This document shows, one piece after another, positions 8,454 to 50,425 of a DNA stretch of 56,797 nucleotides (positions within the stretch are counted from its first letter, which is position 1; each line of letters starts with the position of its first letter). The stretch lies in the NCBI GenBank assembly GCA_023229385.1, contig JALNZI010000008.1, positions 1-56,797 on the forward strand. The letters are read 5' to 3'. The stretch is from Candidatus Omnitrophota bacterium. Its GTDB lineage: Bacteria > Omnitrophota > Gorgyraeia > Gygaellales > Profunditerraquicolaceae. A model generated the notes under the pieces. The model was given only the letters and a program-made list of their open reading frames with translations. It was not told the origin of the DNA and searched no databases. The position numbers and the translations under genes are program-made.

Positions 8454-8454
8454 T

Positions 8455-8739: not shown

Positions 8740-9045
8740 TGTATTTTTAATTATTATTTGTTAATTACCCAAGTTAATGCAGCCATTTGTCCTAATAAGT
8801 AACTTATCTCATGATTTAATTCATTTCCTTCACTAGATAATAGATCAATTTGATATAATGAATGCAGTTTTTATCAGTTTTCATTCTTTCTCGATTTAGT
8901 CTTACAATTTTATTACGTATTTTATCTTCTGTTTTCATTTTAATTATTTTTTAAATACGATTATTATAATCATCATTTGATTTTATATAGCATAATAATA
9001 AAAGACAAACTATAATTAATATTATTGTTAATGTTGGTGTCATAA

Positions 9046-10290
9046 TTAAAAAGGTAATGTTAATAATTCAAATTCTTTCATTTGTTTCATAGCTAAACGA
9101 TATTCGTTAATTGAATCATAAGCACAATATTTTAATGTTTCTTTTTTACCTTCCGGTGTTGCAAAATATTCAAGTAAACGATTCATAGAATTTGCATTCT
9201 TTTCATCAATTGCTTGTAAATAAGGTTCCACAGTACTCGAATAATCAATAATGCCAAAATTAACATAGGTTTGAAATTTTAAGTTGGTAATACCTGTACG
9301 ATTATCCAATATATGTGCTGCTAACATAGCATCATGATACCAACTTTTAACCCTAGTTTTTAGTTTAACCCAACTCCAAGTTTCTTCAAATTTCATATTA
9401 TGTGAAAACTTTTTAATATACTTATTATTTAGTAAATTAATAAAAGGTTCTCTTTTTTCAATTTCATTAGGCATTGTAAAAACATAAACATTATCTTCAT
9501 CTGTTGCAACAGAACAACAAACAATTTTATGACTTTTAGCATAAGGTTTTAAACCTGTCGTTTCATAATCAAATGCAATCATTGCATTGTTTGGTATTTG
9601 TTCTAAAACACTTAAATCTGTTATATAATTAATAGTAGGTTCTTGATAAACTGGAAATTCTTTATCTAAAATTGCTAAAGCATTTTTTAAATCTTTTTCA
9701 AATATATTTGCAACTTCTACACGATTACTTTGCTGCACAAATGATGGTAAAAAAACAGGTGCAATCCAACATTTAAGTTCCTGATCAGGTATTATAAAGC
9801 CACGCCATTTATCAATACCTTCCAAAGATTTTTTCCAACGTGAACCAATTACACTTGTTAATGCAATTTTTCCAAACAAAACAATTAACTTAGGTTTGTA
9901 TTGTTGTATGATACGAAAAATATTTAACTGGCAACAACTAATTTCCTTTGCAGTAGGTATTCTACTTTTACCTGTTTCTTTATCATAAGTAAAACAACGT
10001 ACAGCATTTATGTTTATACAATCTTTTTCAATATCAATTCCTAATTTATTATAAACATGATAAATATAATTTTCACTACCCTGAAATGGTTTACTTAATT
10101 GGTCATCTTGAAAGCTTGTAAAGCTACCAATATTCATAATACCTTTTTTAAATTGACCAAAAGGTTCCATTTTAGGGTTAGGGCAATTTATATCATTTTT
10201 ATACAAACCACAACTATAACATGAAAATCCTCTTTTTTTAACAGAGAAATTATCAATTTTTGTTTCTTGTTTTGTAAAGAATCCAGTCAT
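9046..10290 (-). CDS. polA: family A DNA polymerase N-terminal part: UDG family 4-like domain plus 3'-5' exonuclease domain
   Basis: The N-terminal Cys cluster SCYSCGLYKNDINCPNP...KGIMNIGS resembles the family-4 UDG CxxCxL...IGExPG block, with the catalytic GEAPG replaced. Exo I is IAFDYETTGL, Exo II WYHDAMLAAHILD and Exo III YCAYDSINEY. Confidence 0.7.
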   Translation of the reverse strand: MTGFFTKQETKIDNFSVKKRGFSCYSCGLYKNDINCPNPKMEPFGQFKKGIMNIGSFTSFQDDQLSKPFQGSENYIYHVYNKLGIDIEKDCININAVRCFTYDKETGKSRIPTAKEISCCQLNIFRIIQQYKPKLIVLFGKIALTSVIGSRWKKSLEGIDKWRGFIIPDQELKCWIAPVFLPSFVQQSNRVEVANIFEKDLKNALAILDKEFPVYQEPTINYITDLSVLEQIPNNAMIAFDYETTGLKPYAKSHKIVCCSVATDEDNVYVFTMPNEIEKREPFINLLNNKYIKKFSHNMKFEETWSWVKLKTRVKSWYHDAMLAAHILDNRTGITNLKFQTYVNFGIIDYSSTVEPYLQAIDEKNANSMNRLLEYFATPEGKKETLKYCAYDSINEYRLAMKQMKEFELLTLPF

Positions 10291-11315
10291 TATTGTTCTT
10301 TTATACTTAAAGTTGTAAGGTAAGTCCAGTCTTTAGTTTGAAAATACAATATATTCTTATTTAAAATACATTCATCTGTGTATGTTAAAATATCCTTTAA
10401 CATACTTGCTTTTATTGAAAAAACAATTAGTTCACCGGTATATTGTATTTTCATTTTTTCTCTAAACCAACTACTATCAGATTTACTTTTTATTGTAATA
10501 ATGTTTTCATTTATTTCAATATCAATAGTATCTACAATACCTTGTTCTTTATTGGTAAAAATAATAGCTTTATCCAAAACTTCATTTAAACTTTTTGGAA
10601 AAACAATTTTTTTACCTTTAATATTTTTTAAATATTTTGATGTGTCAACAAATGTTTCTTTATAAGTACGGCATGAAATAATTGTACCTTCTTTTGTACG
10701 AAAATGGACCCAACCGTTGCCTTCTGAAACTTTTGTAGGGTTTAATTTAATCAAAGTATTTATAGATGTTGCAGGAATTAAACAAGTATCAATTGGTAAT
10801 TCATTATCTAATTTACAATGCATTATTCTTAAATTATCACAACTTTCAATAAAACCACTTTTATTAATATGTACACAAATTAGTTTTGGATCACTTACAT
10901 CACTTGAACAGCCTATTACAACAAATTTCAAAAATTCTATAAATTTATCAGGTAATTTAAACCATTTATTTTTTACAGAAATTTCTTCATCTAAAGGTAG
11001 TTTAATTTCTTCAATTAATGTAAATCCTGAAATAGATTTACCTGCTTTTAATACAATTTCTTGTTTTTCATTTTTTGTAATATCAATTTCTTCATTTTTA
11101 ATTTTTGCAAGAAATTTATAAAGTTCTTCTGCCTTAATTGCACCGGTAATATCTAAATCAGTAATAGGATGGGATATACTTATTTCATCATTATAAGTTA
11201 CTACACAACCATTTACAAAAGCAAATGAAGTGGATTGTTCAATTATTTCTTTATTTGCTAAACCGGGTTTAACAATTTCAAGTGCATGTTTTAATTCTTC
11301 TTTATTAATTTTCAT
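10290..11315 (-). CDS. dnaN: DNA polymerase sliding clamp (beta, DnaN-like)
   Basis: Three-domain size (341 aa). The N-terminus MKINKEELKHALEIVKPGL is like DnaN MKFTVEREHLLKPLQQV, TFVDTSKYL is like FPDYRRVLP, and IQYTGELIVFSIKASMLKDIL is like VTYSGAEMEIGFNVSYVLDVL. Confidence 0.65.
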   Translation of the reverse strand: MKINKEELKHALEIVKPGLANKEIIEQSTSFAFVNGCVVTYNDEISISHPITDLDITGAIKAEELYKFLAKIKNEEIDITKNEKQEIVLKAGKSISGFTLIEEIKLPLDEEISVKNKWFKLPDKFIEFLKFVVIGCSSDVSDPKLICVHINKSGFIESCDNLRIMHCKLDNELPIDTCLIPATSINTLIKLNPTKVSEGNGWVHFRTKEGTIISCRTYKETFVDTSKYLKNIKGKKIVFPKSLNEVLDKAIIFTNKEQGIVDTIDIEINENIITIKSKSDSSWFREKMKIQYTGELIVFSIKASMLKDILTYTDECILNKNILYFQTKDWTYLTTLSIKEQ

Positions 11316-12448
11316 AATTTTATTTTGATTAAACCATATTTTAAATGGAAATATTTTTTAATAATATTTGGAAAATTCATTTTAAACCTCAATAAACTCT
11401 TATTGTTTTTACTTGCTTGCATAAATGACATTTTTTTAAAAATTGCGGGAACATTACACCATCCACTTAATGCCATATAAAAAGAAGGAAAAGGACTTTT
11501 TCTCCATTTTTCAAATTTCATTATATATGGTAAGCATTCATATTTCATTAGAATATTAAGTCTTTCAAATATTTCAACCAAATCATTTTCCCAAAACTTG
11601 TCATCATATTTGTTATTTTTATCAAATGCACAAAATATATAAAATTTAGGAATTTTGTTTGGCATATACTTTTTAAACAATTTTATTTTTTCTTCAATTA
11701 TTTCTTTATCTTCATAATTATCAAATGCAAATATGTAATCACCATCATATTTACTTTCAGATAATATTTTTGCTTTTTTTTCTGTTAATAAGCGTATATC
11801 AAGACCTTGATTATAACAAAAAGGTTTTTTAGTTTCTTGCAATTGTTTGAATATAATTTCCCAATATTTTCCAGAACCAAATACATTATCGTCTAGTAAT
11901 ATAATTTTCTTTCTTTTTTCATCAACAAATTCTGATAATGGACTATGCAATGTTACAGTTTTAACACCTCTATTGAAACAAAAAGAACATTGTCTAAAAC
12001 ATCCTCTCGTTGTGAATCCGATAGAATAATCTAAATAATTTTTAAAATATTTTCTTTGTCTTCTTTTAAATCTAATTTCATTTTTTATCCATTCATCATA
12101 TAAGTGATAATCAGGAAAGTGATGTTCTATTTCATCAGGTAATCTTGGTGTTTTTGAATACTCTGGTTCTTTTTGTCCTTTTTCATAAAAAAATCCTGAT
12201 CCACCATATTCAACAAATGGTAATTTTAAAATAAATTTTGGTATGTGTGAATCAGTAAAAACTTTTGAAACAAAAACTTTATCATATTTGCTTTGAAAAA
12301 GAGCACTTGGACTAAGCTCTTCAAAAGAAATAAGTTTTACTTTATGTCCAAGTGCTTTATAATAACCTGATAATTTCATCAAAGCAAGATTGGGAAAATT
12401 ATGATGTTTTCTACTGATTAGTTCAACATCAATCATTCCAATATACAT
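11312..12448 (-). CDS. radical SAM enzyme with N-terminal B12-binding-like domain
   Basis: GFTTRGCFRQCSFCFN is a CxxxCxxC radical-SAM cluster motif, and an N-terminal Rossmann-like block MIDVELISRKHHNFPNLALMKLSGYYKALGHKV precedes it. Confidence 0.65.
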   Translation of the reverse strand: MYIGMIDVELISRKHHNFPNLALMKLSGYYKALGHKVKLISFEELSPSALFQSKYDKVFVSKVFTDSHIPKFILKLPFVEYGGSGFFYEKGQKEPEYSKTPRLPDEIEHHFPDYHLYDEWIKNEIRFKRRQRKYFKNYLDYSIGFTTRGCFRQCSFCFNRGVKTVTLHSPLSEFVDEKRKKIILLDDNVFGSGKYWEIIFKQLQETKKPFCYNQGLDIRLLTEKKAKILSESKYDGDYIFAFDNYEDKEIIEEKIKLFKKYMPNKIPKFYIFCAFDKNNKYDDKFWENDLVEIFERLNILMKYECLPYIMKFEKWRKSPFPSFYMALSGWCNVPAIFKKMSFMQASKNNKSLLRFKMNFPNIIKKYFHLKYGLIKIKL

Positions 12449-12467
12449 GATTTATTTATTTGGATTT

Positions 12468-13511
12468 TTATATTTTTTTTACATCTTCTGCATGTTTGTA
12501 GAAGTTTTTTTCGGTGGTAAGAATCATGTACCAAAAACGTTTACTCTGTTTGTGCCAAAAGTACTTTTCAAGTTTTCCTTTTCTTTTTTCTCCTGTTTTG
12601 TCAGTAAAAGTTACCGTATCACCTTTAGCAAATCCTTTAGGCCATTCAACTTTAGCATGTTTTTCTACTTGTTCTTTAACTTTTTTAGCAGGTTTTTCTA
12701 CCTTTTTCTCTGTGGTAAGACCTTGTTCAGCAAGAATATCAAGCATTTTCTTTTTAAGGGAAAATACACTTGATTTAGCTAGTAATGATTTACGTTTCTT
12801 TTTAAACTCGTCATTTTCCTTTACCAAATTTTGCAAATCAGCTTTTTTAGCTGTTTCTTTTACCGTTATTGCAAGATTTTCTTCTTCATCCTCTTCTTCA
12901 TCCTCTTCTTCTTCTGGTTCAGGAACAATTATCTTTTTATTTTTTTTAACGGGTTCAGGTTTATCTTTTTCATTACCTTTTTTTACTGGTGGTAAGTCTT
13001 CATCTTCATCTTCATCAGGTTCAGGTTCAATTACTTTTTTACCTTTTTTTATAGGAATAGGTTCAGGTTTATCTTTTTCATTACCTTTTTTTACTGGTGG
13101 TAAGTCTTCATCTTCATCTTCATCTTCATCAGCATCTTCGTCCTCATCAGCATCTTCGTCCTCATCCTCGTCTTCATCAGCATCTTCGTCCTCATCAGCA
13201 TCTTCATCCTCATCTTCATCCTGATCAGCATCTTCGTCTTCATCAGCATCTTCATCCTCATCTTCATCCTGATCAGCATCTTCGTCTTCATCCTCTGTGC
13301 CATACTTTTCAGCTAAGCCGTCAAAAATGGCCTGTGTAGTTTTGGTAAATTTGTCACCTTCTTCAAACAGTTGAAGAACAGTATCATAAAGTTCCTTTGC
13401 AAATTCATCAAGTTCCATTTCATTATACGCTATTGCAGGATCAACTCCCACAACTTTGTCCAGCTCTTTATAAGCTGCAACCAATTCCTTTTTTGAATAA
13501 TTTTTTGCCAT
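12468..13511 (-). CDS. acidic-repeat protein (EDEDEDADxDE tract plus LPPVKKGNEKDKPEP repeats) with a basic C-terminal domain
   Basis: About 75 aa are purely D/E/A/Q repeats. LPPVKKGNEKDKPEP(I/V) occurs twice, each followed by an acidic run, and there is a C-terminal K-rich domain. Confidence 0.55.
   Translation of the reverse strand: MAKNYSKKELVAAYKELDKVVGVDPAIAYNEMELDEFAKELYDTVLQLFEEGDKFTKTTQAIFDGLAEKYGTEDEDEDADQDEDEDEDADEDEDADQDEDEDEDADEDEDADEDEDEDEDADEDEDADEDEDEDEDLPPVKKGNEKDKPEPIPIKKGKKVIEPEPDEDEDEDLPPVKKGNEKDKPEPVKKNKKIIVPEPEEEEDEEEDEEENLAITVKETAKKADLQNLVKENDEFKKKRKSLLAKSSVFSLKKKMLDILAEQGLTTEKKVEKPAKKVKEQVEKHAKVEWPKGFAKGDTVTFTDKTGEKRKGKLEKYFWHKQSKRFWYMILTTEKNFYKHAEDVKKI
12880..13300. 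repeat. tandem coding repeats (GAT/GAA/GAC-rich 48-bp units, plus a roughly 60-bp unit at about 12950 and 13055)
   Basis: gatcagcatcttcgtcttcatcagcatcttcatcctcatcttcatcct is repeated. ggttcaggtttatctttttcattacctttttttactggtggtaagtcttcatcttcatc is also repeated. Confidence 0.8.
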
Positions 13512-31477: not shown

Positions 31478-31500
31478 TTTTTCTTTGTTTTTAAATTAGT

Positions 31501-31544
31501 AAAGCAAAATTGCTTTGTGCCTGTACCGGAATCGGACCGGTACA
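31501..31544. promoter_or_regulatory. two adjacent palindromes (possible operator/terminator)
   Basis: AAAGCAAAATTGCTTT (31501-31516) and TGTACCGG-aatcgga-CCGGTACA (31522-31544). They lie between gene 31568-31774 and the start of gene 30851-31477. Confidence 0.35.
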
Positions 31545-31567
31545 AAGAACCGTTCAGGCTAATAAAA

Positions 31568-31774
31568 TTAATTGTTGTCTTCAATCACAGTTATAACGAT
31601 TGTTGAGATAAAACTTATAACCGATATAACTGCTAATATTACAGTTATAATAGAATCATGTGCCGTAAAGAAAGAAATAAGTATCATTCCTAGAAAGCTT
31701 ACTACAAAAGTTATGGCTGTAATGATTACTAACCTGTCGATGTTCTGTTCTTTCGTTGTCATAGTGTTTAACAT
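31568..31774 (-). CDS. small two-TM membrane protein
   Basis: Two TM helices: ITAITFVVSFLGMILISFF and IITVILAVISVISFISTIVITVI. It is the first gene of the leftward gene block. Confidence 0.4.
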   Translation of the reverse strand: MLNTMTTKEQNIDRLVIITAITFVVSFLGMILISFFTAHDSIITVILAVISVISFISTIVITVIEDNN

Positions 31775-31785
31775 AATATTAAGTT

Positions 31786-31814
31786 GTTTATCACTGTTAT
31801 CACTTGCAAATATA
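31786..31814 (-). promoter_or_regulatory. candidate leftward promoter/operator: tandem TGTT(T)ATCAC direct repeat plus TATATTTG (-7-like TAnnTTTG) on the minus strand
   Basis: gtttatcac (31786-94) and tgttatcac (31795-803). The rc of caaatata at 31807-31814 is TATATTTG, 33-40 nt upstream of the ATG at 31774. Confidence 0.3.
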
Positions 31815-31960
31815 TGTAATATTATAATACGTTGTACTCATTAATGCAAAAAAATTTAAAAAAAAATTAAATGTATTATAACGTATTAATACACAGTAAG
31901 TTACAACCTTAAATGACTTATATCATAGTATATATATTACTTAACATAATTAAATAACAC

Positions 31961-32130
31961 TATAAAAAGCAATATAAGGCAATTCACCAGGTAAAAGCCT
32001 AATAACCCAACCTGACTATAATAAAGGCTTAAATAGCCTTATAATGCAAAATAAAGGCTATTCAACCAGGTAACCCATATAATAGTATAACAACCTATAA
32101 AAAGGCAATAAGGCACAATAAAAAATAAAG
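31961..32130. repeat. iteron-like cluster: at least 7 copies of (T)AAGGC/GCCTT plus 2 copies of CCAGGTAA within 170 bp
   Basis: ataaggcaa, caccaggtaaaagcct, taaaggctt, atagcctta, taaaggcta, caaccaggtaac, aaaaggcaa and taaggcac. Confidence 0.5.
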
Positions 32131-32947
32131 AAGCAATATGAGTAAATGGTAAAGTAAAGGTATATATTCATCCATATAGTATAATATAGTAATATATGTT
32201 ATAATACAATAAAAAGAATAAAAATATAGTGAAAAATGTAAAAAAGAATAAAAAAGCCGCGCCCGCTTAGCTTCCACACTTTGTTTCTGTACCACACCAA
32301 TATCACTATGATAAGCTATTCATGTACTAATGATATGCTATTCACAACGAATGTTATACTATACTCTATATATAGTATATATACATACCACTGCACTAGC
32401 TCTGTTCACTGCGATTAGCAGGAATAATTGTTATATATAGTAGTGTGCCGAGGTGAAGGGAAGATCAGGTGAATGTGAATGGCGAAAATGGAAAGAGGTT
32501 TGATGGGCTTGTACCTCTCATAGAATATATAAATTTTTTTGATGAATACAAATTTTATTTATTCATTAAAGGCTTGTTATTATTATTTGACGATTCATAT
32601 TGAAAAAAACGAATAAGTATTATATTATAATATAGTATATATAATAGTAATATGTATATACTATATATGGTAAAAATTGTTTTCATTATGATTTATATAT
32701 TCATTATTATATTCTATTCACTATTTATATTCATTATTATTAATATATTTTATTTACCTTTTTTCATTAATATTATTCATTTTACAATTCATAAAAAAAA
32801 TTTGAAAAAATTTTTTAAGGTTTTCAAAAATTAATATTCATTATTGATTATTTATATTGTATAATAAAAATTTTTATTTAATATTGTTAAATGTGTATAT
32901 TATGTTTATCTATATAAGGATTGCTAAAAAAATTTTATGTTTTTTAT

Positions 32948-41445: not shown

Positions 41446-41901
41446 ATGGCGAAACACACCATTAAAATTAAAAAGTATTCTGATGTTATTGAAGAATACG
41501 TGAATGGTACAGTATTACCGGTTACGCCTGGAATGCTGATTGAGATAACAAGTGATAATGTAGTACAACCACATTCTACTGAGGATGGTGCAGCTTTGAT
41601 TATGTTTGCTTTGGAAGATGAACTTCAAGGTAAAGGTATTGATGATGCTTATGCCGTAAGTACAGCAAGTCCAATTGTGAAAGTACCAGTTCAATGTTGG
41701 CTACCCGGTCATGGTGATATGGCTTATGCTTTGTTAGCAGACGGTGAAACTGCTGTAATAGGTAGTTGGTTAGCCAGTAATGGCGATGGGAAACTGAAAG
41801 TCAGTACTACGAATCCAATTGGTCAGGCTGTTGAAGCTGTTGATATGAGTGGTTCATCAGGTGCTGATCCTAGTGGTCGTATTATTGTACGTATTAATTA
41901 A
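41446..41901 (+). CDS. small head protein (decoration/auxiliary capsid protein)
   Basis: 151-aa Gly/Ala-rich protein immediately before the major capsid gene, with a strong SD (aaaggaggttaagaaATG). Confidence 0.35.
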   Translation: MAKHTIKIKKYSDVIEEYVNGTVLPVTPGMLIEITSDNVVQPHSTEDGAALIMFALEDELQGKGIDDAYAVSTASPIVKVPVQCWLPGHGDMAYALLADGETAVIGSWLASNGDGKLKVSTTNPIGQAVEAVDMSGSSGADPSGRIIVRIN

Positions 41902-41916
41902 AAGGAGGGGAAAATT

Positions 41917-43002
41917 ATGTTAGATGTTAATGTTGATTTGATGGGTAATGGTGGCGGACAAGGTGAAATTGCCGCTTATATGCAACAGAATAACAGATTA
42001 GACCCTGCTGTATTGCGCCCGTATAGGGGAACTGACGGAAAAGCTTATATTTCAGTTTTTAAAGGAGGTGATCCTAAAAAACCTGAAAATTATTCTGTTA
42101 TTAATGTAAATGAAGCTACACTTCGTCCGTATGAGTGGAGACAATTAGATGAAGCTGTTATTACTATTGCTGAAAATAGGTTAGTTGGAGTAAATGATCT
42201 TATTTCCAATGGACTAACTTATAATTTGGGCAATGCTATGGGTACGACCGTACTTGAAACACATACTATATCAGATGCAATGGAAGCTGATCTTACTATG
42301 GATGCTGTTTCAAGGGCTAAAGGTGATCGTCCTGTTTTTGGAACTAAGTACACTCCAATTCCAATAATTCATGTGGATTATGAAATTAATGCAAGGGTAC
42401 TTGCTTCAAGTCGTTCACTTGGCAATCCTTTGGATACTTCATCTGCTGAACGTGCTGCACGTAAAGTAGCAGAAAAATTGGAAGATATGTTGTTTACTAA
42501 CACTACTTATGGATTTGGTGGTGGAACTATTTATAGTTACATTAACTATCCTGATAGAAGTTTAATATCACTTACTACTTATGGTAATTGGGCTACTAGT
42601 ACTACTACCGGAGCAAAAATCATTGAAAGTGTACTTGCAATGAAACAAGCTTCTATTGATGATAATTATTTTGGTCCTTGGAAGTTGTATGTACCAACGA
42701 ATTTTGAAACTCGTTTGGATAATGATTATGATACGGTAACTCCGGGTACGACTATACGTGAAAGAATATTAAAAATTGGTGGTATTCAATCGGTTACTGT
42801 GGCTGATCATCTTCCTGCTTCAAATGTTTTGTTAGTACAAATGACTAGTAATGTTGTAAGATTAATTCGTGGAATTGGTCTTACAAATGTTGAATGGCAA
42901 ACTGAAGGAAAATTCGTTAATAAATACAAAGTATTAACTATACAAGTTCCTCAAATTCGTTCTGATTATAACGAAAAAACTGGAATTGTACACATGAGTT
43001 AA
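41917..43002 (+). CDS. major capsid protein
   Basis: Size (361 aa), position, the strongest SD in the window (aaaggaggggaaaattATG), and a terminator-like hairpin plus T8 immediately downstream. Confidence 0.6.
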   Translation: MLDVNVDLMGNGGGQGEIAAYMQQNNRLDPAVLRPYRGTDGKAYISVFKGGDPKKPENYSVINVNEATLRPYEWRQLDEAVITIAENRLVGVNDLISNGLTYNLGNAMGTTVLETHTISDAMEADLTMDAVSRAKGDRPVFGTKYTPIPIIHVDYEINARVLASSRSLGNPLDTSSAERAARKVAEKLEDMLFTNTTYGFGGGTIYSYINYPDRSLISLTTYGNWATSTTTGAKIIESVLAMKQASIDDNYFGPWKLYVPTNFETRLDNDYDTVTPGTTIRERILKIGGIQSVTVADHLPASNVLLVQMTSNVVRLIRGIGLTNVEWQTEGKFVNKYKVLTIQVPQIRSDYNEKTGIVHMS

Positions 43003-43009
43003 ATTTAAT

Positions 43010-43032
43010 TCACTAATCAAGTGATTTTTTTT
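43010..43032 (+). terminator. putative terminator/attenuator after the major capsid gene
   Basis: TCACT-aatca-AGTGA hairpin followed by TTTTTTTT. Confidence 0.4.
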
Positions 43033-43059
43033 ATTATATTTGTTTAAAAAGTCTTAATC

Positions 43060-43515
43060 ATGGTAGAACGTAAAAGAATTAGAAACGATGTAACAATTAA
43101 AATGCCTATTGTTGAAGAACAAATAGTTACGGATGAAGAAAAAGAAAAAATTGCTATTGAAGAAAAAGCATTTAATGAAGAAGTAACAACAGTAAAGTCA
43201 GAACTAATTGAACGTAAACCGATACGATGGAAAAAAGTAGGTGGTGGAAGTTTTTCTTTAAATAATCGGTTTATTAAACCGGGACAAATATTTTTAGCAT
43301 TTCCAGAAGAAATACCTGTTCAATTTCGTGATCTTGTTATTCCTTTAGAAGAAAAACCTTTACCTTTAAATATTGAAGAAATTAAAAAGAAATCATCTTA
43401 TAAGTTAGAGGAAAAATCTGATGGATGGGATATTTTAGATTCTTTTGGTAAGGTTTTAAATGAAAAACCAATGGAGAAAGAAGTTGCTGAACGTATTTTA
43501 GTTATGTTACAATGA
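43060..43515 (+). CDS. charged 151-aa protein carrying a roughly 50-aa module also present inside the 1084-aa glycosyltransferase fusion
   Basis: RKPIRWKKVGGGSFSLNNRFIKPGQIFLAFPEEIPVQFRDLVIPLEE here, versus IRKPIRWKKMGNGSFLFNNCYIKKNQVFTAFSEDIPKQFRDVIIPLEE at about 47815-47960. Confidence 0.5.
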   Translation: MVERKRIRNDVTIKMPIVEEQIVTDEEKEKIAIEEKAFNEEVTTVKSELIERKPIRWKKVGGGSFSLNNRFIKPGQIFLAFPEEIPVQFRDLVIPLEEKPLPLNIEEIKKKSSYKLEEKSDGWDILDSFGKVLNEKPMEKEVAERILVMLQ

Positions 43516-44207
43516 TATGGTCCGTACCTAAAATATGGGAAGGTGGTGATGCTTGGATATTAGGTGGTGGACCATCTATTATTGATCAATTTAATATACC
43601 TAAAGAGGTGTCAGAAAAGGTATTATTGAAACAATTACCTTTGTCTGCATATTCAAGTTATATGAAACTTATTCATGATAAACATGTTATAGGTATAAAT
43701 ATAGCTTATTTAATAGGTAATTGGATTGATATTGTATTTTTTGGAGATAAAAATTTTTATCTTACACATAAGGAAGGTTTGTTTAATTTTCCGGGATTAA
43801 AAATTAGCTGTAATCCAGAAGTTGAAAAATGTTTTTGGATAAAATATTTAGCACAAGATAAAGCTAAACATTTAGGAATTACAACAAATCCAAAAATGAT
43901 TAGTTGGAATAAAAATAGTGGAGCTGCTGCTATAAGTTTGGCTGTTCATACAGGAGTTAAAAGAATATTTCTTTTAGGTTTTGATATGAAATTGAATGAT
44001 GCAAATAAACAGCATTGGCATAGTGAATATAAAAATCCACAAGAACCATTAAATTTAAGAAAGTTGCCATTTCAAAGACATTTAACTGGTTTTCCTAGTA
44101 TTTATAAAGATGCAAAGAATCTAAATGTACAAATTTACAATGTAAATTCAGATAGTGCAATTACACAATTTCCATGTATTAATTTAAAAGAAGCTTTGGA
44201 ATTATGA
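43512..44207 (+). CDS. putative Rossmann-type glycosyl/sugar-nucleotide transferase (DUF115/MptE-like)
   Basis: GGDAWILGGGPS...HVIGINIAYL...GAAAISLAVHTGVKRIFLLGFDM. The GxGPS and LGxD blocks are typical of that family. Confidence 0.35.
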   Translation: MIWSVPKIWEGGDAWILGGGPSIIDQFNIPKEVSEKVLLKQLPLSAYSSYMKLIHDKHVIGINIAYLIGNWIDIVFFGDKNFYLTHKEGLFNFPGLKISCNPEVEKCFWIKYLAQDKAKHLGITTNPKMISWNKNSGAAAISLAVHTGVKRIFLLGFDMKLNDANKQHWHSEYKNPQEPLNLRKLPFQRHLTGFPSIYKDAKNLNVQIYNVNSDSAITQFPCINLKEALEL

Positions 44208-45409
44208 AAATTATAAATTGTCCAATTAGTGGTAGTGAAAAAGGGGTAGAATTTCTTAATTTAGGAAAAATACCACTTGTAAATAATTTATGTGATACAA
44301 AACAAGACGCATTAAATTGTGAAAAGTTTTCATTAGCTGTTCAGTTTTTTCCTGAAAGTAAAGTTACTTGTTTAACAGAAACGGTGGATAAGGACAATTT
44401 ATTTCTTCATTATTTGTATCAATCGGGTGTAAATAAGCCTTATTTAGATCATTGTGCTGAAATGTATGATTATTTATCCCATATTATTGATTTTAAAGAC
44501 AAAGATGTTGTATTAGACATTGGTGGAAATGATGGTAGTTTATTAAAAGAATTTAGAAAGGAAAATCAAAATCTTCATTATATAAATGTTGATTGCAGTC
44601 GTAGTTTTATTGATGTTAATCGAGAATCTGGAATTGAATATATTAACGAATATTTTGGTGAAAGTATATCTTTACCATATAAAGCTAAGTTGATTACATC
44701 AACAAATGTATTTCAACACACGGAACCCATACGTTCATTCGTAAAAGGTATTTGTAGGAATTTGTCAAATGAAGGTGTTTGGTGTTTGGAATTTCCTTAT
44801 ATTCTTACAACACTTGCAAATGATAATTATGATCAGGTTTATCATGAACATGTGTATTATTTTTGTTTACAGAATATAATTGATATAACAAAACAAGAAG
44901 GCTTAAAAGTCATTAATGTTTCTTATCATGATATGCACGCTGGAACATTGCGAGTTTTAATTGTGAAAGAATCTTCACGCAGACAACCAGATAATACAAT
45001 ACTTTCTTTTCTTAATTTGGAAAAAACACTAACAAAAGAATACTATTTGAAGTGGGGATCACAAACAACATCGAAAATTAAGCAATATCAGGTAGATATG
45101 AAAAGACTTGTTATGAATGGTGCAAAGGTTGCTTGTTTTGGTGCTGCTGCAAAAGGGTGCATCTTTTTAAATACTTGTGAAATAGATAACACAATGGTAC
45201 AATTTATTATTGATGATACTCCTTTTAAGCAAGGTAAATTTGTTCCGGGAACAGGAATAGAAGTTGTAAGCAGAAAAATATTAAAAGATGTTAAAATAGA
45301 TTATATGATTATTCTTGCTCATAATTTTAAAGATTATATAATAAATTCATTAAAGGGGCAATATAATGGTAAATATATTTTAATGTTTCCTGATATGAAA
45401 ATATTATAA
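44204..45409 (+). CDS. sugar C-methyltransferase family protein (TylC3/EvaC-like; N-terminal Zn-like domain, SAM-binding domain, C-methyltransferase C-terminal domain)
   Basis: NCPISGSEKGVEFLNLGKIPLVNNL resembles CxxCGSxxLxxVLDLGxQPLAN. Motif I is VVLDIGGNDGSLL. The C-terminal domain is CFGAAAKGCIFLN...IDDTPFKQGKFVPGTGIEVVS...MIILAHNFKDYI. Confidence 0.65.
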   Translation: MKIINCPISGSEKGVEFLNLGKIPLVNNLCDTKQDALNCEKFSLAVQFFPESKVTCLTETVDKDNLFLHYLYQSGVNKPYLDHCAEMYDYLSHIIDFKDKDVVLDIGGNDGSLLKEFRKENQNLHYINVDCSRSFIDVNRESGIEYINEYFGESISLPYKAKLITSTNVFQHTEPIRSFVKGICRNLSNEGVWCLEFPYILTTLANDNYDQVYHEHVYYFCLQNIIDITKQEGLKVINVSYHDMHAGTLRVLIVKESSRRQPDNTILSFLNLEKTLTKEYYLKWGSQTTSKIKQYQVDMKRLVMNGAKVACFGAAAKGCIFLNTCEIDNTMVQFIIDDTPFKQGKFVPGTGIEVVSRKILKDVKIDYMIILAHNFKDYIINSLKGQYNGKYILMFPDMKIL

Positions 45410-45432
45410 TATTGTGAAATAAATATAATTAT

Positions 45433-46290
45433 ATGCTAACAGCTAGCAATATCGAAAAAATTTGTATTGTCACAGTATTTGATAGACATTATAAAGAAGC
45501 AGGGAAAACTTTGTTTAATTCAATCAGAAGGCATACAAATTGTGATGGAATAGATTTTAAAGTTATTACATCAGATGAGGAAGTATTAAATGAATGGGGA
45601 AAGGATAATTGTTATTTTGTAACGGATAATATTAAAAATAGGTATAAGAATGTTCAATATTCTAAGGATTTACCTATTGAGCGATATGCTTTATCATGGT
45701 ACAGATATGAAATATTCAATATGACTGATTACGATAGAGTAATATGTATTGATTCTGATTGTATATGTGTTCAAGATATTAGTTATTTATTTAGTGAAGA
45801 ATTAAATCAGTATGATCTTATTTCTGTTGAAGATCATTTTGTATCAAAAATACTACCTAATTTATATTCTAAATTAGAAAAGAATGGTTGGAACTTTACA
45901 AATTTATACAAAAGGGTTTCTTTAAAACAAGTTGATATTCAACCTGCTGTACTTGTAATTAATAAGAATGTCATAAATAGTATATGGTATAATGAGTTAT
46001 TAGCTTATGCTAATAATACGGGTTTTACTTATTCTATTGATCAAGGTATTCTAAATGATTTTATTTATCAAAAAAATATAAATATCAAATTACTACCGTT
46101 GGAATGGAATTATCAAGACCTTTATGCTATTCGTTGTTCAGAACTTGCAGTAGTTAATCCAATTATAATTCATTGTCAAGAATCCAAACCTTTTAAACTT
46201 GTTAGAAAAAATGTAGATGTACGAATACAAAAATTTTATGATCAATGGTGGTATGAATATGATTATGCCAAATCATTGAAAACAACAACA
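45433..46290 (+). repeat. internal duplication, copy 1 of the GT8-like domain
   Basis: About 60-70% nt identity to 46294-47110. It includes an exact 42-bp match at 45775-45816 (gatattagttatttatttagtgaagaattaaatcagtatgat). Confidence 0.8.
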
Positions 46291-48687
46291 AGGATGAAAG
46301 GTAAGATATGTATAACTACTACATTTGATTATAACTATAAACATGCAGGACAAACTTTGCTTAGTTCAATCAGAAGACATACAAATTGTGATGGAATTGA
46401 TTTTAAAATAATTACTAACGATCCAAAGGTTGTGGCTGAGTTTGGAGCAGAAAACTGTCATATTATTACTCCTGAAATACAAGCCAATTATAATAACGTG
46501 AAATATATTACTGATATTCCTAAAGAACAATATTATTCTTCGTGGTATCGTTATGAGATGTTTAATTTTGAGGGATATGATCGGGTAATATGTATTGATT
46601 CTGATTGCATTTGTATTGAAGATATTAGTTATTTATTTAGTGAAGAATTAAATCAGTATGATTTAATATCAACAGAGGACATGATTGTTTCTCACATGTT
46701 TAAACAACATATTCCTTCGTTAGAGAAGAACTACGGATTAAATTTAGTAGGTTTACGACGTAGAATAGCTGCTGGTCAGGTTGATATTCAACCGGCATTA
46801 CTTGTTGCTAATAAAAAAATTGTAAATAATAAATGGTATAAGCAATTAATAACTTATGCCAATACAACAAATCATACTTATTCTATTGACGAAGGTATCT
46901 TAAATGATTTTATTTATTTGAAAAGATTGAACATTAAGATATTACCAATGGAATGGAATTATATGGATACTTATGGTGCTCAAATATTGGAACTTCCTGA
47001 ACCTAAAAAACCTTTTATTGTGCATTGTCAAGAATCTAAACCTTTTAAAAAGGATAAAGCAGATGTTAATGTGCGAATACACAAATGGCATAATAAATGG
47101 TGGGAAGAAGCTAATCATATAAAATATTCAACTATTGTTGCTATTATTGTTTGGAATAGATTTGAAAATCTAAAATTATGGGTAAATGCTTGGAATCAAT
47201 GTATTCAAAGTGATGTTAAGTTAATAGTTGTTCACAATCTTGAAAGTGACAATAATAGATATTCTCAGTTATGTAAAGATAACGGAATAATGTATATTCC
47301 AAGAGAAAATAAAGGTTTTGATATTGGGGCTTTTCAAGATGTATGTAAAGAAAGATTGGAAGGTTTTCCTAATGATTGGGAAAATTTAATCTGGATTACT
47401 GATGATTGTATTCCAATGGCAAAAGATTTTGTTGAACAATTTTTAAAATGTTTACCAAAAATACCTTGTTATGAAATATCTCAGGAAGTAAAAACTCATG
47501 TTAGAACTACCGGATTTTTAGTCACCAAAGAAATATCTAAAAAACTTGTTTTTCCAAAAGACCCGATAGAGAATAGGGAAGATTGCTATCAATTTGAACA
47601 TAAAGGCTTTTTACAAGTTAAAAATATGTATGAACAGATTGTTAGTATGGGAAAACAACCAGTAATGGTTAATAAGGATTTAAGGTTATCTCCATTATGG
47701 GATTCAGGAGTAAGATGGCAACTTAAATTAATGGGTAAACATGAAGCTATTTTTCCATTTATTAAAATAAATGTTGAACCGATAAAAGTAGATGTTAAAC
47801 TAGTTGAAGCAGAATTACCTATAAGAAAACCAATTCGATGGAAAAAAATGGGTAATGGTTCCTTTTTATTTAATAATTGTTATATTAAAAAAAATCAAGT
47901 ATTTACTGCATTTTCTGAAGATATTCCAAAACAGTTTCGTGATGTAATTATTCCATTAGAAGAAATAGTTTCGGAAATTAAAAAAGTTATTCCAGTTGAA
48001 CCGGTTAAATTAAATAGTAAACCGATTATATATAATGTTTTGGATGAGTTGGCTATTAAGCATAAATCAGATAAGTCTTCTAGGTATCATAATTACGCAG
48101 TAAAATATGATAAAATATTATTTCCGTTTAGAGAATCATTTTCATCAATTTTAGAAATTGGTGTATCACAGGGACAGTCTACAAAAATGTGGACCGATTA
48201 TTTTGAGAATGCTACTATTCACGGTGCAGATATTGAAAAAGGTTCTAAAATTTGTGAATCATATTCTAATAGAGTAAAATTTCATGAACTTGACCAACGA
48301 GATTTAGCACAACTTAAAAATCTTGAACAATTTTCTCCATTTGATTTTGTAATAGATGATGGTAATCATTTTTGGTTTGAACAAATTCTTACATTTGAGG
48401 CTTTGTTTCCTTATGTTAGAAAAGGAGGAATATATATTGTTGAAGATACTACTACTTCTTATTGGGAGGAATATAAAAATAATCCGATTTCACCCGTAGA
48501 ATATTTTAAGACATTGGTAGATGAAGTTCATCTTAAAGGGGCAAGAGGAAATATTCCTATAAATCCCCCGCAGGAATTTGGTAATTGGGAAAAAGGGTGG
48601 CATCGTAGGGAAGATTGTTTTGAATCAGTACCTTTATTTGAATCAATTCAATTTATGAATGGTTTTATTGTAATTTATAAAAGATAA
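45433..48687 (+). CDS. 1084-aa multidomain fusion: GT8-like + GT8-like + GT-A (GT2-like) + shared 50-aa module + TylF/MycF-like O-methyltransferase
   Basis: The two GT8 units each carry the donor-site DxD block VICIDSDCIC(V/I)(Q/E)DI and the HxxGxxKPF block (IIHCQESKPF and IVHCQESKPF). The GT-A block is IVAIIVWNRFENLKLWVNAW...LIWITDDCIP. The O-methyltransferase has motif I ILEIGVSQGQSTKMW, then DFVIDDGNH and GGIYIVEDT. Confidence 0.7.
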   Translation: MLTASNIEKICIVTVFDRHYKEAGKTLFNSIRRHTNCDGIDFKVITSDEEVLNEWGKDNCYFVTDNIKNRYKNVQYSKDLPIERYALSWYRYEIFNMTDYDRVICIDSDCICVQDISYLFSEELNQYDLISVEDHFVSKILPNLYSKLEKNGWNFTNLYKRVSLKQVDIQPAVLVINKNVINSIWYNELLAYANNTGFTYSIDQGILNDFIYQKNINIKLLPLEWNYQDLYAIRCSELAVVNPIIIHCQESKPFKLVRKNVDVRIQKFYDQWWYEYDYAKSLKTTTRMKGKICITTTFDYNYKHAGQTLLSSIRRHTNCDGIDFKIITNDPKVVAEFGAENCHIITPEIQANYNNVKYITDIPKEQYYSSWYRYEMFNFEGYDRVICIDSDCICIEDISYLFSEELNQYDLISTEDMIVSHMFKQHIPSLEKNYGLNLVGLRRRIAAGQVDIQPALLVANKKIVNNKWYKQLITYANTTNHTYSIDEGILNDFIYLKRLNIKILPMEWNYMDTYGAQILELPEPKKPFIVHCQESKPFKKDKADVNVRIHKWHNKWWEEANHIKYSTIVAIIVWNRFENLKLWVNAWNQCIQSDVKLIVVHNLESDNNRYSQLCKDNGIMYIPRENKGFDIGAFQDVCKERLEGFPNDWENLIWITDDCIPMAKDFVEQFLKCLPKIPCYEISQEVKTHVRTTGFLVTKEISKKLVFPKDPIENREDCYQFEHKGFLQVKNMYEQIVSMGKQPVMVNKDLRLSPLWDSGVRWQLKLMGKHEAIFPFIKINVEPIKVDVKLVEAELPIRKPIRWKKMGNGSFLFNNCYIKKNQVFTAFSEDIPKQFRDVIIPLEEIVSEIKKVIPVEPVKLNSKPIIYNVLDELAIKHKSDKSSRYHNYAVKYDKILFPFRESFSSILEIGVSQGQSTKMWTDYFENATIHGADIEKGSKICESYSNRVKFHELDQRDLAQLKNLEQFSPFDFVIDDGNHFWFEQILTFEALFPYVRKGGIYIVEDTTTSYWEEYKNNPISPVEYFKTLVDEVHLKGARGNIPINPPQEFGNWEKGWHRREDCFESVPLFESIQFMNGFIVIYKR
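46294..47110 (+). repeat. internal duplication, copy 2 of the GT8-like domain
   Basis: Exact 42-bp match at 46621-46662, with parallel protein blocks HAGQTLLSSIRRHTNCDGIDFKIIT and EAGKTLFNSIRRHTNCDGIDFKVIT. Confidence 0.8.
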
Positions 48688-48688
48688 A

Positions 48689-49384
48689 ATGCTTGTATTA
48701 ATCACACCAACAGGAAGTCGTCCAAAGCAATTTGAATTATGTATGCAATGGATGAAGCAACAAACTTATACAGGTAAAGTTGTTTGGATTGTTATAGATG
48801 ATTGTTTTCCTAAAACAATAGATATTCTTAATGAAGATTTTCGTGAAAATTGGTTAATAATTAAAAAATACCCAAAACCTTTATGGGAAATTGGGAAAAA
48901 TACACAGGGTAGAAATTTAAAAATTGCTATTGATACTATTAATGCTTTTCCTAAAGATTGGGTTGAAACAATTTATATAATTGAAGATGATGATTATTAT
49001 AAACCTGAATATTTACAAACAATGAAAGACCGTTTGAAAGGGTTTACATTAGCAGGTGAGGTTAAAACAGTATATTATAACATTAAGTATAAAATGTTTA
49101 AGGAAATGGCTAATACAAGCCATGCAAGCCTATTTCAAATATGCTTTACAGCTGATGCTTTACCTATACTTGAAAAATATCTAAATGATGGATTTATTGA
49201 TATTAATTTTTGTAAAAATATAAAGAATATTAATTTATTTGAAGCTAATAAATTAGCAATAGGTATAAAAGGTTTACCTGGAAGACCTGGAATAGGAATT
49301 GGGCATAGACAAAAAGGAATTTTAGATATAAATTTAAACAAGTTAAAAGAATTAATTGGTGAAGATTATAAATATTATTTATAA
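48689..49384 (+). CDS. putative GT-A-fold glycosyltransferase
   Basis: N-terminal LITPTGSRPKQFELCMQWMKQQ (GT-A beta1-alpha1) and an acidic EDDDYY (DxD-like) block. Confidence 0.4.
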   Translation: MLVLITPTGSRPKQFELCMQWMKQQTYTGKVVWIVIDDCFPKTIDILNEDFRENWLIIKKYPKPLWEIGKNTQGRNLKIAIDTINAFPKDWVETIYIIEDDDYYKPEYLQTMKDRLKGFTLAGEVKTVYYNIKYKMFKEMANTSHASLFQICFTADALPILEKYLNDGFIDINFCKNIKNINLFEANKLAIGIKGLPGRPGIGIGHRQKGILDINLNKLKELIGEDYKYYL

Positions 49385-50073
49385 TGCTAAGAAAAATACA
49401 ACATAATCCTATTTTCATAACCGGAGTTGAACGTTCGGGTAGTACTATTATTGCAAGAATTTTAGATTTGTGTAATGTAAGTTCTGGAAATTGTAATAAT
49501 ATGTTTGAAAATGTTATTATTAATGAATTTAATACAGATTATTTGAAGAATTTTTCATTAACTTTTCCTAAAACAGCAGATATTGACATACCAATAAGAT
49601 GGAAAGGTGCAGTTGATGGTGTTTTATTGGTTGAGAATTGCCTTGACAAGCCCTATATGGTTAAATCTGCTATGTTAGCAAGGTTATGGCCAATATGGAA
49701 TTATGCTTATCCTGATGCCAAATGGTTAATAGTTCGTAGGCGTACAGGAGACGTAATACAGTCTTGTTTAAAAACAGGTTATATGAAAACTTTTAAATCT
49801 GCTGAAAATTTATTATCTTTGGGTCTTACAAAAGAAGCAGAAGGTTGGCTTTGGTGGATACATCAATACGAAAATAAATTTGTTGAAATGATTAAAGCTG
49901 GTTTAAATTGTAGAATTATATGGCCTGAAAGAATGGTTACTGGCAATTATGAACAAATGTATGAAACAATTGAATGGTTAGGTTTAAAATGGAATGAACA
50001 AATACCAGAAATTATTGATCCATTATTAAGTAAAAGTAGGGAGGGTATTATATATGAGAACAACAGTAGATGA
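49384..50073 (+). CDS. sulfotransferase family protein
   Basis: The 5'-PSB-like motif is PIFITGVERSGSTIIARIL (compare PxFIxGxxRSGTT). The 3'-PB-like motif is AKWLIVRRRTGDVIQS (RxxxDxxxS). Confidence 0.6.
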   Translation: MLRKIQHNPIFITGVERSGSTIIARILDLCNVSSGNCNNMFENVIINEFNTDYLKNFSLTFPKTADIDIPIRWKGAVDGVLLVENCLDKPYMVKSAMLARLWPIWNYAYPDAKWLIVRRRTGDVIQSCLKTGYMKTFKSAENLLSLGLTKEAEGWLWWIHQYENKFVEMIKAGLNCRIIWPERMVTGNYEQMYETIEWLGLKWNEQIPEIIDPLLSKSREGIIYENNSR

Positions 50074-50425
50074 TGTAATTGATATTTTAGATAATACAGA
50101 ATTAGATGATTCTGTTATTGAAAAATATATTAATAGTGCAAATGTATTTGTTACAGGTACATTAGGTACAACTTTGAGTGTGTCTATTCTTACAGAAATT
50201 GAAAAATGGATGGCTGCACACATGATTGTTTCAACTCGTGAACGTATGTCTAAAGATGAAGGTGCTGGTGGGGCTTATATTAAATGGTCTGGTCAATGGG
50301 GTATGGGTTTAAACTTCACACCTTATGGTCAAATGGCAGTTGCTTTGGATACCACAGGAGTATTAAATAACATAGCAAAGGGTAAATCTAATGCTTGGGT
50401 TCATGCTATACCTAATTTTGATTAA
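50054..50425 (+). CDS. head-tail connector/adaptor protein (gp6-like)
   Basis: Size, position and an SD of gtagggagggtattatatATG. It has the SVSILTEIEKWMAAHMI helix typical of head-tail adaptors. Confidence 0.45.
   Translation: MRTTVDDVIDILDNTELDDSVIEKYINSANVFVTGTLGTTLSVSILTEIEKWMAAHMIVSTRERMSKDEGAGGAYIKWSGQWGMGLNFTPYGQMAVALDTTGVLNNIAKGKSNAWVHAIPNFD

Follow-up and report, generated by a model that had tools for sequence, protein, structure and literature searches.

The window analysed here is a stretch of 56,797 nucleotides (contig JALNZI010000008.1 of assembly GCA_023229385.1, labelled Candidatus Omnitrophota bacterium), and we concentrated on the open reading frame (ORF) at positions 45433-48687 of its forward strand. 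This ORF encodes a protein of 1084 residues, which is very probably a real multi-domain enzyme for building glycans. Two glycosyltransferases of family GT8 are followed by a third predicted transferase of GT-A fold (MID), by a small docking-like module (LINK) and by an O-methyltransferase. The window is a phage genome, and the ORF lies within its structural operon, in an island of glycan genes between the genes of the capsid protein and of a head-tail connector-like protein. Across related phages the flanks of this island are conserved and its core varies. The ORF is one interchangeable cassette of that core. We tentatively read the island as a locus that decorates the virion.

The ORF listing and the translation give one frame that starts with ATG and has no internal stop. 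The original prediction, made from the sequence of the window, placed four catalytic domains on one polypeptide, and this is borne out by Pfam, profile, Protein Data Bank (PDB) and fold matches. Its domain limits differ by about 10-70 nt from ours, and its boundary at 46294 is a retained internal ATG of the second GT8 unit. We mapped the five segments of the window protein onto 102 related protein clusters obtained by protein search. About 100 of the clusters have the GT8-MID-O-methyltransferase core in common. The commonest architecture among them is GT8-MID-O-methyltransferase (about 712 residues); GT8-GT8-MID-O-methyltransferase is found in 14 clusters. There are also MID-GT8-MID-O-methyltransferase proteins of about 930 residues, and three homologs of 1487-1565 residues that carry GT9 and C-methyltransferase domains in addition. 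A C-methyltransferase is fused to the core in clusters P0036, P0037 and P0082, and a Maf-like domain stands at the N-terminus of the GT8-MID-O-methyltransferase core in P0049 and P0053. Other phages have the same modules as separate genes, or in further fusions with the C-methyltransferase, GT9 or the Maf-like enzyme. For example, locus L078, from a different phage type, encodes at 8063-12760 a 1565-residue protein made of GT9, C-methyltransferase, GT8, MID and O-methyltransferase; sulfotransferase, GT2 and SLT lysozyme genes lie downstream of it.

These comparisons make it exceedingly improbable that the giant ORF is an artefact, i.e. a mis-assembly over the internal repeat or a sequencing error joining separate genes. 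An internal repeat with 44 nt of exact identity could in principle mislead an assembler, and one of the two GT8 types does stand as a separate gene in a related phage (L002). However, the reading frame is unbroken and the linkers are conserved. A 98%-identical protein of 1084 residues (P0001, one of the double-GT8 set) comes from an independent JGI contig, and besides the window there are 13 more double-GT8 proteins in separate JGI, ENA, Logan and NCBI assemblies. Mis-assembly is very unlikely because separate assemblies share the architecture and because the GT8 units differ at one base in three: at 67% identity in DNA they are too divergent to collapse or chimerise.

Both N-terminal units belong to GT8, a family of retaining transferases. 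Pfam PF01501 (Glyco_transf_8) matches two stretches (41.3 bits, for a curated cutoff of 24.3), and a profile built from 13 such units retrieves WbbM (PDB 6u4b) through its GT8 domain, with E = 1.8e-12 over positions 10-261. The DSD motif (D107, D109) is invariant across the 13 aligned units, whether of the type of the first unit of the window (a-type) or of the second (b-type), and it aligns with the DSD of WbbM. The other motif of the family is HxxGxxKPW, in which the His binds the metal and the Lys the phosphate. Its counterpart in the phage units is an invariant HCQESKPF, which is one residue shorter and has the Gly replaced and the His and Lys-Pro kept; IVHCQESKPF in the phage units aligns with MIHYAGENKPW in WbbM. 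The original prediction had named a DxD block and HxxGxxKP as the motifs to look for upon alignment. The first is present as the invariant DSD, the second only as this shorter variant. H247, K252 and P253 do not vary among the units, whether of a- or b-type. With these three residues and the two aspartates conserved throughout, both GT8 units look catalytically competent.

We then considered the history of the two units. The internal tandem duplication described in the original prediction is clear from four ungapped direct-repeat blocks (45438-46273 against 46284-47125), spaced by 846-852 nt and 71-75% identical. The identity between units, said to be roughly 65%, is 66.9% for codon-aligned nucleotides (564/843), 56% at third positions and 59% for amino acids (161/274). 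The exact 42-nt repeat (45775-45816 and 46621-46662) is also there, as part of a maximal match of 44 nt. The claim that the duplication is recent does not hold. The units are orthologous across 13 other double-GT8 proteins, whose first units are 65-77% identical to window unit a and 55-61% to unit b, with the reverse for their second units. The identity between the two units of one protein is always 57-62%. Both types also exist singly, and in a neighbour-joining tree (support values were not computed) the a clade and the b clade each include single-unit proteins. The phage of L002, which has a P22-type portal, encodes a separate a-type GT8 (73% identical), then a 63-residue ORF, then a b-type GT8-MID-O-methyltransferase. 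Finally, the internal ATG at 46294 starts MKGKICITTT, and single-unit b-type homologs start MKICITTT; this start codon may be ancestral, which is consistent with the fusion of two genes. Because the a and b types are orthologous between proteins, occur as single units, lie in separate genes in L002 and have left a start codon at 46294, the evidence favours gene fusion between old paralogs (or their splitting in L002) over a recent duplication in place.

The 44-nt match includes 14 identical codons in a row; for this amino-acid pattern and overall rate of same codons, such a run has a probability of ~0.002-0.004. In L001 there are 15 identical codons at the same place (P ~0.006-0.012). The first Ser of the exact stretch is encoded by AGT in both window units and by TCN in all 18 other units (16 loci). 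TAC, CTT and an Asn-to-Ser change are common to the two units of L001, and the units of L004 differ from each other throughout the stretch. This is the pattern of short gene-conversion tracts, which would have arisen independently in two lineages, that of the window and that of L001. Codon bias alone was considered as the cause of the identity and rejected, given the use of AGT versus TCN at the first Ser and the low probability of the 14-codon run. The GT8 pair thus illustrates that an exact repeat does not date a duplication.

The third transferase domain, MID, has no significant match in Pfam, NCBIfam or PHROGs, and its sequence profile gives only chance matches against the PDB. When 26 members were scanned singly, matches below threshold were obtained to RgpF for 10 of the 26 (best 1.7e-4) and to GT2 for five (best 1.9e-5). 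An AlphaFold2 model built on the 26-member alignment has a predicted local distance difference test score (pLDDT) of 94.4 and a predicted template modelling (TM) score of 0.90. With this model Foldseek retrieved 288 PDB matches at E <= 1e-3. The best 50 of the 288 are GT-A-type glycosyltransferases and related nucleotide-sugar enzymes (GlcAT-P, SpsA, GnT-I, HddC, RmlA), with TM scores of ~0.5 and identities of at most 18%. D91 and D92 of the domain (WITDDCIPM) are invariant in 26/26 sequences, and we assign them as DxD-like from the alignment. According to the model, MID is a divergent glycosyltransferase of GT-A fold that lacks a named family.

We also used MID as a probe for related loci. 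It retrieved 61 loci from IMG/VR, in 55 of which a C-methyltransferase homolog adjoins it; two of the other six stop at a contig edge. Among 185,579 bacterial and archaeal species genomes, MID was found only on 10 contigs of metagenome-assembled genomes (MAGs), 2-39 kb long, and in no isolate genome. At least two of these 10 are the same phage contigs. L066 (JBAZYH010000012.1) and L067 (JBAZHY010000001.1) are binned in 'Candidatus Paceibacterota' and 'Pedobacter sp.' MAGs, yet they are phage contigs of this lineage: L066 has portal, capsid, island and tail genes, and L067 equals IMG/VR contig 3300037067_002288 in length. The bin labels of MID-bearing MAG contigs (Pedobacter, Sphingobacterium, Bacteroidetes, Paceibacterota) are mere hints on the host.

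The C-terminal domain is predicted to be a sugar O-methyltransferase of the MycE/TylE type, with apparently intact catalytic residues. It matches MycE (PDB 3ssm, 2e-18) and TylE (8ia9, 5e-16), as well as phrog_21658, and Pfam Methyltransf_24 covers residues 907-1006. FDFVIDDGNH in the ORF aligns with FDIVIDDGSH, and IVED with VIED. By the MycE structure, we take the DDGNH and VED positions to be the catalytic His and the metal ligands. The match to MycE is limited to its catalytic half (chain residues 184-334). Its N-terminal auxiliary domain has no counterpart in the ORF, where the LINK module stands upstream instead.

The original prediction had noticed a module shared between the ORF and the small ORF at 43060-43515, and we recovered this match, which falls in the middle of the small protein, at 48% identity over 93 residues (E = 4e-24). 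The small ORF, hereafter ORF151, is the first gene of the island. A hidden Markov model of LINK detects the module in all syntenic loci, in the small ORF that follows the capsid gene. In the enzymes, LINK is at the N-terminus in nine homologs and internal in the window ORF, P0001 and P0031; the enzymes of L004, L005 and L017 lack it. In L160 (11413-12360) it heads a 315-residue protein whose other ~250 residues have neither a Pfam match nor any relation to GT8 or MID, and L144 has a similar second LINK match (11407-11676). Scanned in full with HMMER, a set of 1.84 billion representative proteins gave 1105 matches to ORF151 (50%-identity clusters), 846 of them at E <= 1e-10, nearly all of 105-190 residues. 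By this distribution, LINK appears to be a portable module confined to this phage lineage. We propose, on the same basis, that it docks enzymes onto a common partner.

In the AlphaFold2 model of ORF151, two small modules are folded and the N-terminus ahead of them is disordered. The LINK part (pLDDT 86-93) consists of five short strands and one helix, and the C-terminal part (pLDDT 85-89) is a hairpin-helix module. No member of the ORF151/LINK family that we scanned, and all were scanned, matches Pfam. Foldseek searches gave no significant match in either the PDB (best E = 0.55) or BFVD (best E = 0.014, all uncharacterised proteins). A likeness of LINK to small barrels of the L24/SH3 type was dropped, the resemblance being weak and not significant. 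The stretch GGGSLRIG in LINK bears some resemblance to encapsulin cargo-loading peptides; we make no claim on this.

To see how the island varies, we surveyed 80 IMG/VR loci and five further contigs with ORF151 as probe. The genes of the capsid protein, ORF151 and the Maf-like enzyme occur in that order wherever the contig is long enough. Where a locus extends to the downstream end of the island, a sulfotransferase-like gene usually lies next to the connector gene; it is missing in L144 and L160. The distance between capsid and connector genes is 2.6-9.8 kb (median 6.9 kb, n = 47). The complete order of the window, i.e. capsid protein, ORF151, Maf-like enzyme, enzymes, 231-residue ORF, sulfotransferase-like protein and connector, is found in L001, L004, L005/L013, L008, L017, L066 and L077. 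GT8-MID-O-methyltransferase is present in only one of the 80 IMG/VR loci found by ORF151. Other islands carry GT11, GT2, GT47-like and RXYLT1_C-like enzymes, FkbM methyltransferases, a radical SAM enzyme, cupins, Sulfotransfer_2 and adenylylsulfate (APS) kinase. Because the flanks are conserved and the enzymes between them vary, the 1084-residue ORF is one allele, or interchangeable cassette, in the variable core of a glycan island. The GT8-MID-O-methyltransferase core is also found in unrelated phage types (L002, L078 and L003), either beside portal or presumed capsid genes or after a 2938-residue polyvalent protein; its context in L076 is less clear.

Some of these islands bear on the nature of the product. 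In L077, an APS kinase and a second sulfotransferase directly follow the enzyme. APS kinase makes the precursor of the sulfate donor. The presence of APS kinase and Sulfotransfer_2 in related islands suggests that the product is really sulfated. Within the islands these genes lie at 12421-13436 in L077 and at 8682-9269 and 11875-12285 in L082.

The lineage is absent from the phage records that we searched. Megablast of positions 41900-50100 against 50,697 phage records gave no match, and a tblastn search with the ORF found nothing in these records beyond matches to the methyltransferase part and a single MID-like stretch, the latter in an uncultured phage of 595 kb. There is no cultured relative of this lineage among these records. 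The capsid protein matches DUF6260 (2.6e-21) and shares 37% identity with the protein annotated as capsid in Brevundimonas phage MaInes, the closest isolate by this protein, which has no island genes after its capsid gene.

In the window, the stretch from capsid to connector (43003-50053) spans 7 kb and contains six genes: ORF151, the Maf-like enzyme, the C-methyltransferase, the 1084-residue ORF, the 231-residue ORF and the sulfotransferase-like gene. Their coordinates, together with those of the flanking genes and of the modules of the ORF, are given in Table 1. Searches of PDB sequences with the Maf-like ORF and with the sulfotransferase-like ORF gave no useful match. The 231-residue ORF has no match in Pfam, NCBIfam, PHROGs or PDB sequences; it may be a further GT-A-like enzyme. 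Homologs of the C-methyltransferase are fused to a dehydratase/epimerase domain in L002 and L003.

Table 1. Features of the 1084-residue ORF and of the island around it (positions in the window; aa, residues of the ORF).
Feature	Position	Strand	Length or residues	Remarks
Whole ORF: GT8a, GT8b, GT-A (MID), docking-like module, O-methyltransferase	45433..48687	+	1084 aa	
GT8 unit a	45433..46281	+	aa 1-283	DSD at aa 107-109; HCQESKPF at aa 247-254; PF01501, WbbM profile match, invariant residues
GT8 unit b	46282..47130	+	aa 284-566	Start codon kept at 46294 (MKGKICITTT)
44-nt exact match, arm 1	45773..45816	+		Encodes DISYLFSEELNQYD, directly after the DxD motif; putative gene-conversion tract
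44-nt exact match, arm 2	46619..46662	+		Putative gene-conversion tract
MID domain, predicted divergent GT-A fold	47131..47790	+	aa 567-786	Invariant DD in WITDDCIPM
LINK module, small, beta-rich	47791..47964	+	aa 787-844	Homologous to the N-module of ORF151
Predicted MycE/TylE-type sugar O-methyltransferase domain, dependent on S-adenosylmethionine and metal	48031..48687 (start approximate)	+	aa 867-1084	3ssm, 8ia9, Methyltransf_24, phrog_21658
Major capsid protein, HK97-like	41917..43002	+		DUF6260/Linocin_M18; upstream flank of the island
ORF151, constant small island protein	43060..43515	+		LINK module and C-terminal hairpin-helix module
Maf/MptE-like, sialyltransferase-like enzyme	43512..44207	+		Constant second island gene; phrog_4603 1e-29; Pfam MptE-like below cutoff
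Nucleoside diphosphate (NDP)-hexose 3-C-methyltransferase, TylC3/TcaB9 type	44204..45409	+		PDB 4rv9 2.5e-43, full length; Pfam
231-residue ORF	48689..49384	+	231 aa	EDDD motif; conserved in syntenic loci
Sulfotransferase-like protein	49384..50073	+		Usual downstream flank of the island; Sulfotransfer_3 8.8e-8, P-loop stretch only
Head-tail connector-like protein	50054..50425	+		Downstream island boundary; weak Pfam DUF4054, Phage_connect_1; synteny with tail terminator and tail tube genes

The rest of the window has the organisation of a phage genome, with a replication module on the minus strand and the structural operon on the plus strand. The replication module includes RecA-like, clamp-loader-like, family A polymerase, uracil-DNA-glycosylase-exonuclease, DnaB-like, primase-like, SNF2 and RuvC genes. 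The family A DNA polymerase appears split into two ORFs on the minus strand (7068-8453 and 9046-10290), one with uracil-DNA-glycosylase-like and 3'-5' exonuclease domains that lies ~600 nt upstream of the one with the polymerase domain. Between the leftward replication genes and the rightward structural genes, 1.4 kb (31478-32920) are AT-rich (~23% GC) and have no long ORFs. The GC skew flips sign there, and this is likely a divergent promoter or origin region. Shine-Dalgarno-like motifs precede nine of the 52 gene starts, among them 41917 (capsid), 41446, 39794, 50054, 51369 and 51795 (tail-tube-like). All island genes lack such a motif, and several overlap a neighbour by 4 nt. Sparse use of the motif is a mere hint on the host. 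The GC content of the island is 26-30%, versus 31-36% in the terminase, capsid and connector genes.

These elements suggest how the cassette might work. A soluble five-module enzyme would be made late in infection by a siphovirus, and the island would assemble an oligosaccharide in the cytoplasm, with the capsid protein or ORF151 as the virion protein that carries it. The Maf-like enzyme would start the chain. The three transferase modules of the ORF could plausibly each add one sugar, assembly-line fashion. The two GT8 modules would add alpha-linked hexoses, and MID would probably add a 3-C-methyl deoxysugar, made by the adjoining C-methyltransferase from NDP-4-keto-6-deoxyhexose of the host. 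The O-methyltransferase would cap a hydroxyl, and the downstream enzyme may then add sulfate. Throughout, LINK would hold the elongating enzyme at its acceptor. We lean slightly towards a virion protein as the target of the ORF. The complete reading goes further. It is that of a serotype-like virion-glycan locus in a widespread lineage of uncultured siphoviruses, whose size is suggested by the 1105 clusters of ORF151 at 50% identity. ORF151 would be the constant acceptor or adaptor and the Maf-like enzyme the constant initiator; the sulfotransferase-like gene would usually be kept, the cassettes exchanged and their enzymes docked by LINK. The 1084-residue cassette would yield a C- and O-methylated, sulfated oligosaccharide on the virion. 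We give this reading a probability of about 0.35.

Several points weigh against a virion protein as the target. The acceptor on the virion is putative, and the docking role of LINK is a guess, without a structural or family match. ORF151 lacks a Shine-Dalgarno-like motif, unlike the capsid gene, which argues against ORF151 as a stoichiometric decoration protein. The donor of MID is assigned solely by gene neighbourhood, and the sulfotransferase call rests on a short P-loop match. We recognised no 4-ketoreductase and no NDP-sugar dehydratase in the window, hence host enzymes or unassigned ORFs would have to complete the pathway to the C-methyl sugar. GT8 enzymes typically serve lipopolysaccharide and O-antigen synthesis, and WbbM, the best solved match of the GT8 units, is an O-antigen enzyme. 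In addition, pelagimyophages have a hypervariable island with many GT8 genes in their structural region, and it has been read as a means of modifying the host O-chain (PMC7029224).

The last of these points lead to the main rival, which we hold to be the less probable of the two. The island might remodel a glycan of the host envelope (lipopolysaccharide O-chain or capsule), e.g. to block adsorption of competing or progeny phages, and its enzymes would act on lipid-linked or nascent polysaccharide. Besides WbbM and the pelagimyophage islands, this is favoured by the JGI names of some homologs ('lipopolysaccharide biosynthesis glycosyltransferase') and by the GT9 heptosyltransferase-like domain of some fusions. 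The hypervariability of the island would also fit an arms race over the host surface. However, the island is inside the late structural operon in every locus examined, and exclusion functions are expected early. It has no convincing membrane segments, and no flippase, polymerase or initiating phosphoglycosyl transferase was recognised in it. Its constant first enzyme is Maf/MptE-like, of a family tied to the glycosylation of proteins such as flagellin. LINK is common to the capsid-adjacent ORF151 and to the enzymes. The near absence of MID from cellular genomes (10 MAG contigs and no isolate) also speaks against an envelope function.

Two further targets are much less probable. DNA is a frequent substrate of phage glycosyltransferases, and there are known DNA glycans built in several steps (bioRxiv 10.1101/2023.12.21.572611), such that the enzymes might glycosylate hypermodified bases of the phage against restriction. 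We consider this improbable, since a Pfam search of the replication module detected no base-modifying enzymes, such as hydroxymethylases or those of TET/JBP type, and the island is in the structural operon, apart from the genes of DNA metabolism. Moreover, we know of no DNA glycosylation system with C-methyl, O-methyl or sulfate tailoring enzymes or with a Maf-like enzyme. That the cassette tailors a small molecule, such as a glycosylated secondary metabolite, is more improbable still: the closest solved relatives of its methyltransferases do come from macrolide and antibiotic deoxysugar pathways (MycE, TylE, mycarose 3-C-methyltransferase, TcaB9), but there are no genes for a polyketide, a non-ribosomal peptide, another aglycone or export, and the structural-operon setting and three transferase domains fit the assembly of an oligosaccharide better.

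We compared the virion-glycan reading with known systems. The closest functional analogues appear to be two proteins of the chlorovirus PBCV-1. A064R has two rhamnosyltransferase domains and a methyltransferase domain, A111/114R has three glycosyltransferase domains, and their product is an atypical, methylated glycan of the major capsid protein (PMC9614988, PMC7826918). Like the window ORF, A064R is a virus-encoded soluble polypeptide that joins several transferase domains to a sugar O-methyltransferase. Unlike the window phage, PBCV-1 is a eukaryotic giant virus, and its enzymes belong to other domain families, without GT8. The likeness to A064R is one of description: it is not among the 50 best listed fold matches of MID, and the shared level is the GT-A fold class. 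The PBCV-1 genes are scattered, whereas the enzyme genes of the window adjoin the capsid gene. The activities and glycan structures of PBCV-1 were determined experimentally, and the window system is known from sequence.

Among phages, the precedent is set by mycobacteriophages (Che8 and relatives). According to Freeman 2023, in so far as it is relayed by PMC12619734 and PMC11256854, their capsid and tail-tube subunits are glycosylated by phage glycosyltransferases. In phage Omega (gp15-gp17 and gp23), which we compared by gene order, the major head gene is directly followed by a glycosyltransferase and a methyltransferase, and a further glycosyltransferase immediately precedes the head-tail connector gene. 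As in the window, glycosyltransferases thus lie between capsid and connector genes, and the Omega methyltransferase is ~30% identical to the O-methyltransferase domain of the ORF. The mycobacteriophage enzymes are separate single-domain genes, in contrast to the fusion of the window, and their type lacks the GT8 pair, the MID family, the C-methyltransferase, the Maf-like enzyme and the ORF151 module. In cluster F mycobacteriophages, the glycosyltransferase genes are near the right genome end, unlike in the window.

Other systems share single aspects. The host recognition cluster of pelagimyophages is likewise a variable, glycosyltransferase-rich region among the structural genes of uncultured aquatic phages; these are T4-like myoviruses, whose ~45-kb island is mixed with tail fibre genes and lacks ORF151 and Maf-like flanks next to the capsid gene (PMC7029224). 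WbbM of Klebsiella pneumoniae is a bifunctional O-antigen galactosyltransferase with a C-terminal GT8 domain, and is multi-domain like the window ORF. However, it acts on a lipid-carried bacterial polysaccharide, its partner domain is of another family, and the phage units are one residue shorter in the loop from His to Lys. MycE and TylE have a homologous catalytic domain in which DDG(S/N)H and the (E)D pair are conserved with the window; they act on a macrolide, whereas the substrate in the window is presumably a macromolecular glycan. Flagellin glycosylation islands in Campylobacter, Helicobacter, Aeromonas and Pseudomonas also have a structural gene beside strain-variable genes for sugars, transferases and methyltransferases, together with a protein-directed Maf/MptE-like transferase. 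They are bacterial and their acceptor is flagellin, and the Maf-like call in the window is from a PHROG match and a sub-threshold Pfam match. In the searchable library we found no published description of this fusion family, which is weak evidence of absence. The window system departs from these known systems in its domain families and in its fusion architecture. It is also set apart by C-methyl and sulfate tailoring, by a constant flank of ORF151 and Maf-like genes, by a portable module and by variability like that of an island.

The interest of the fusion lies mainly in its setting, a structural operon with a hypervariable glycan island, which goes beyond what the original prediction saw. 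To our knowledge, glycosylation of phage virions has been shown experimentally only in mycobacteriophages, where it shields the virions from antibodies. If the island does glycosylate virions, it would be common for environmental phages to bear elaborate glycan coats with methyl and sulfate groups. Such coats would diversify in the manner of bacterial O-antigens, and modular fusion enzymes that carry a dedicated module for docking would assemble them. This would bear on the recognition between phages and their hosts or grazers, on the stickiness of particles in sediments and water, and on the engineering of glycan-coated phages. The family also offers compact glycosylation enzymes with several activities and a GT-A family without a close characterised relative.

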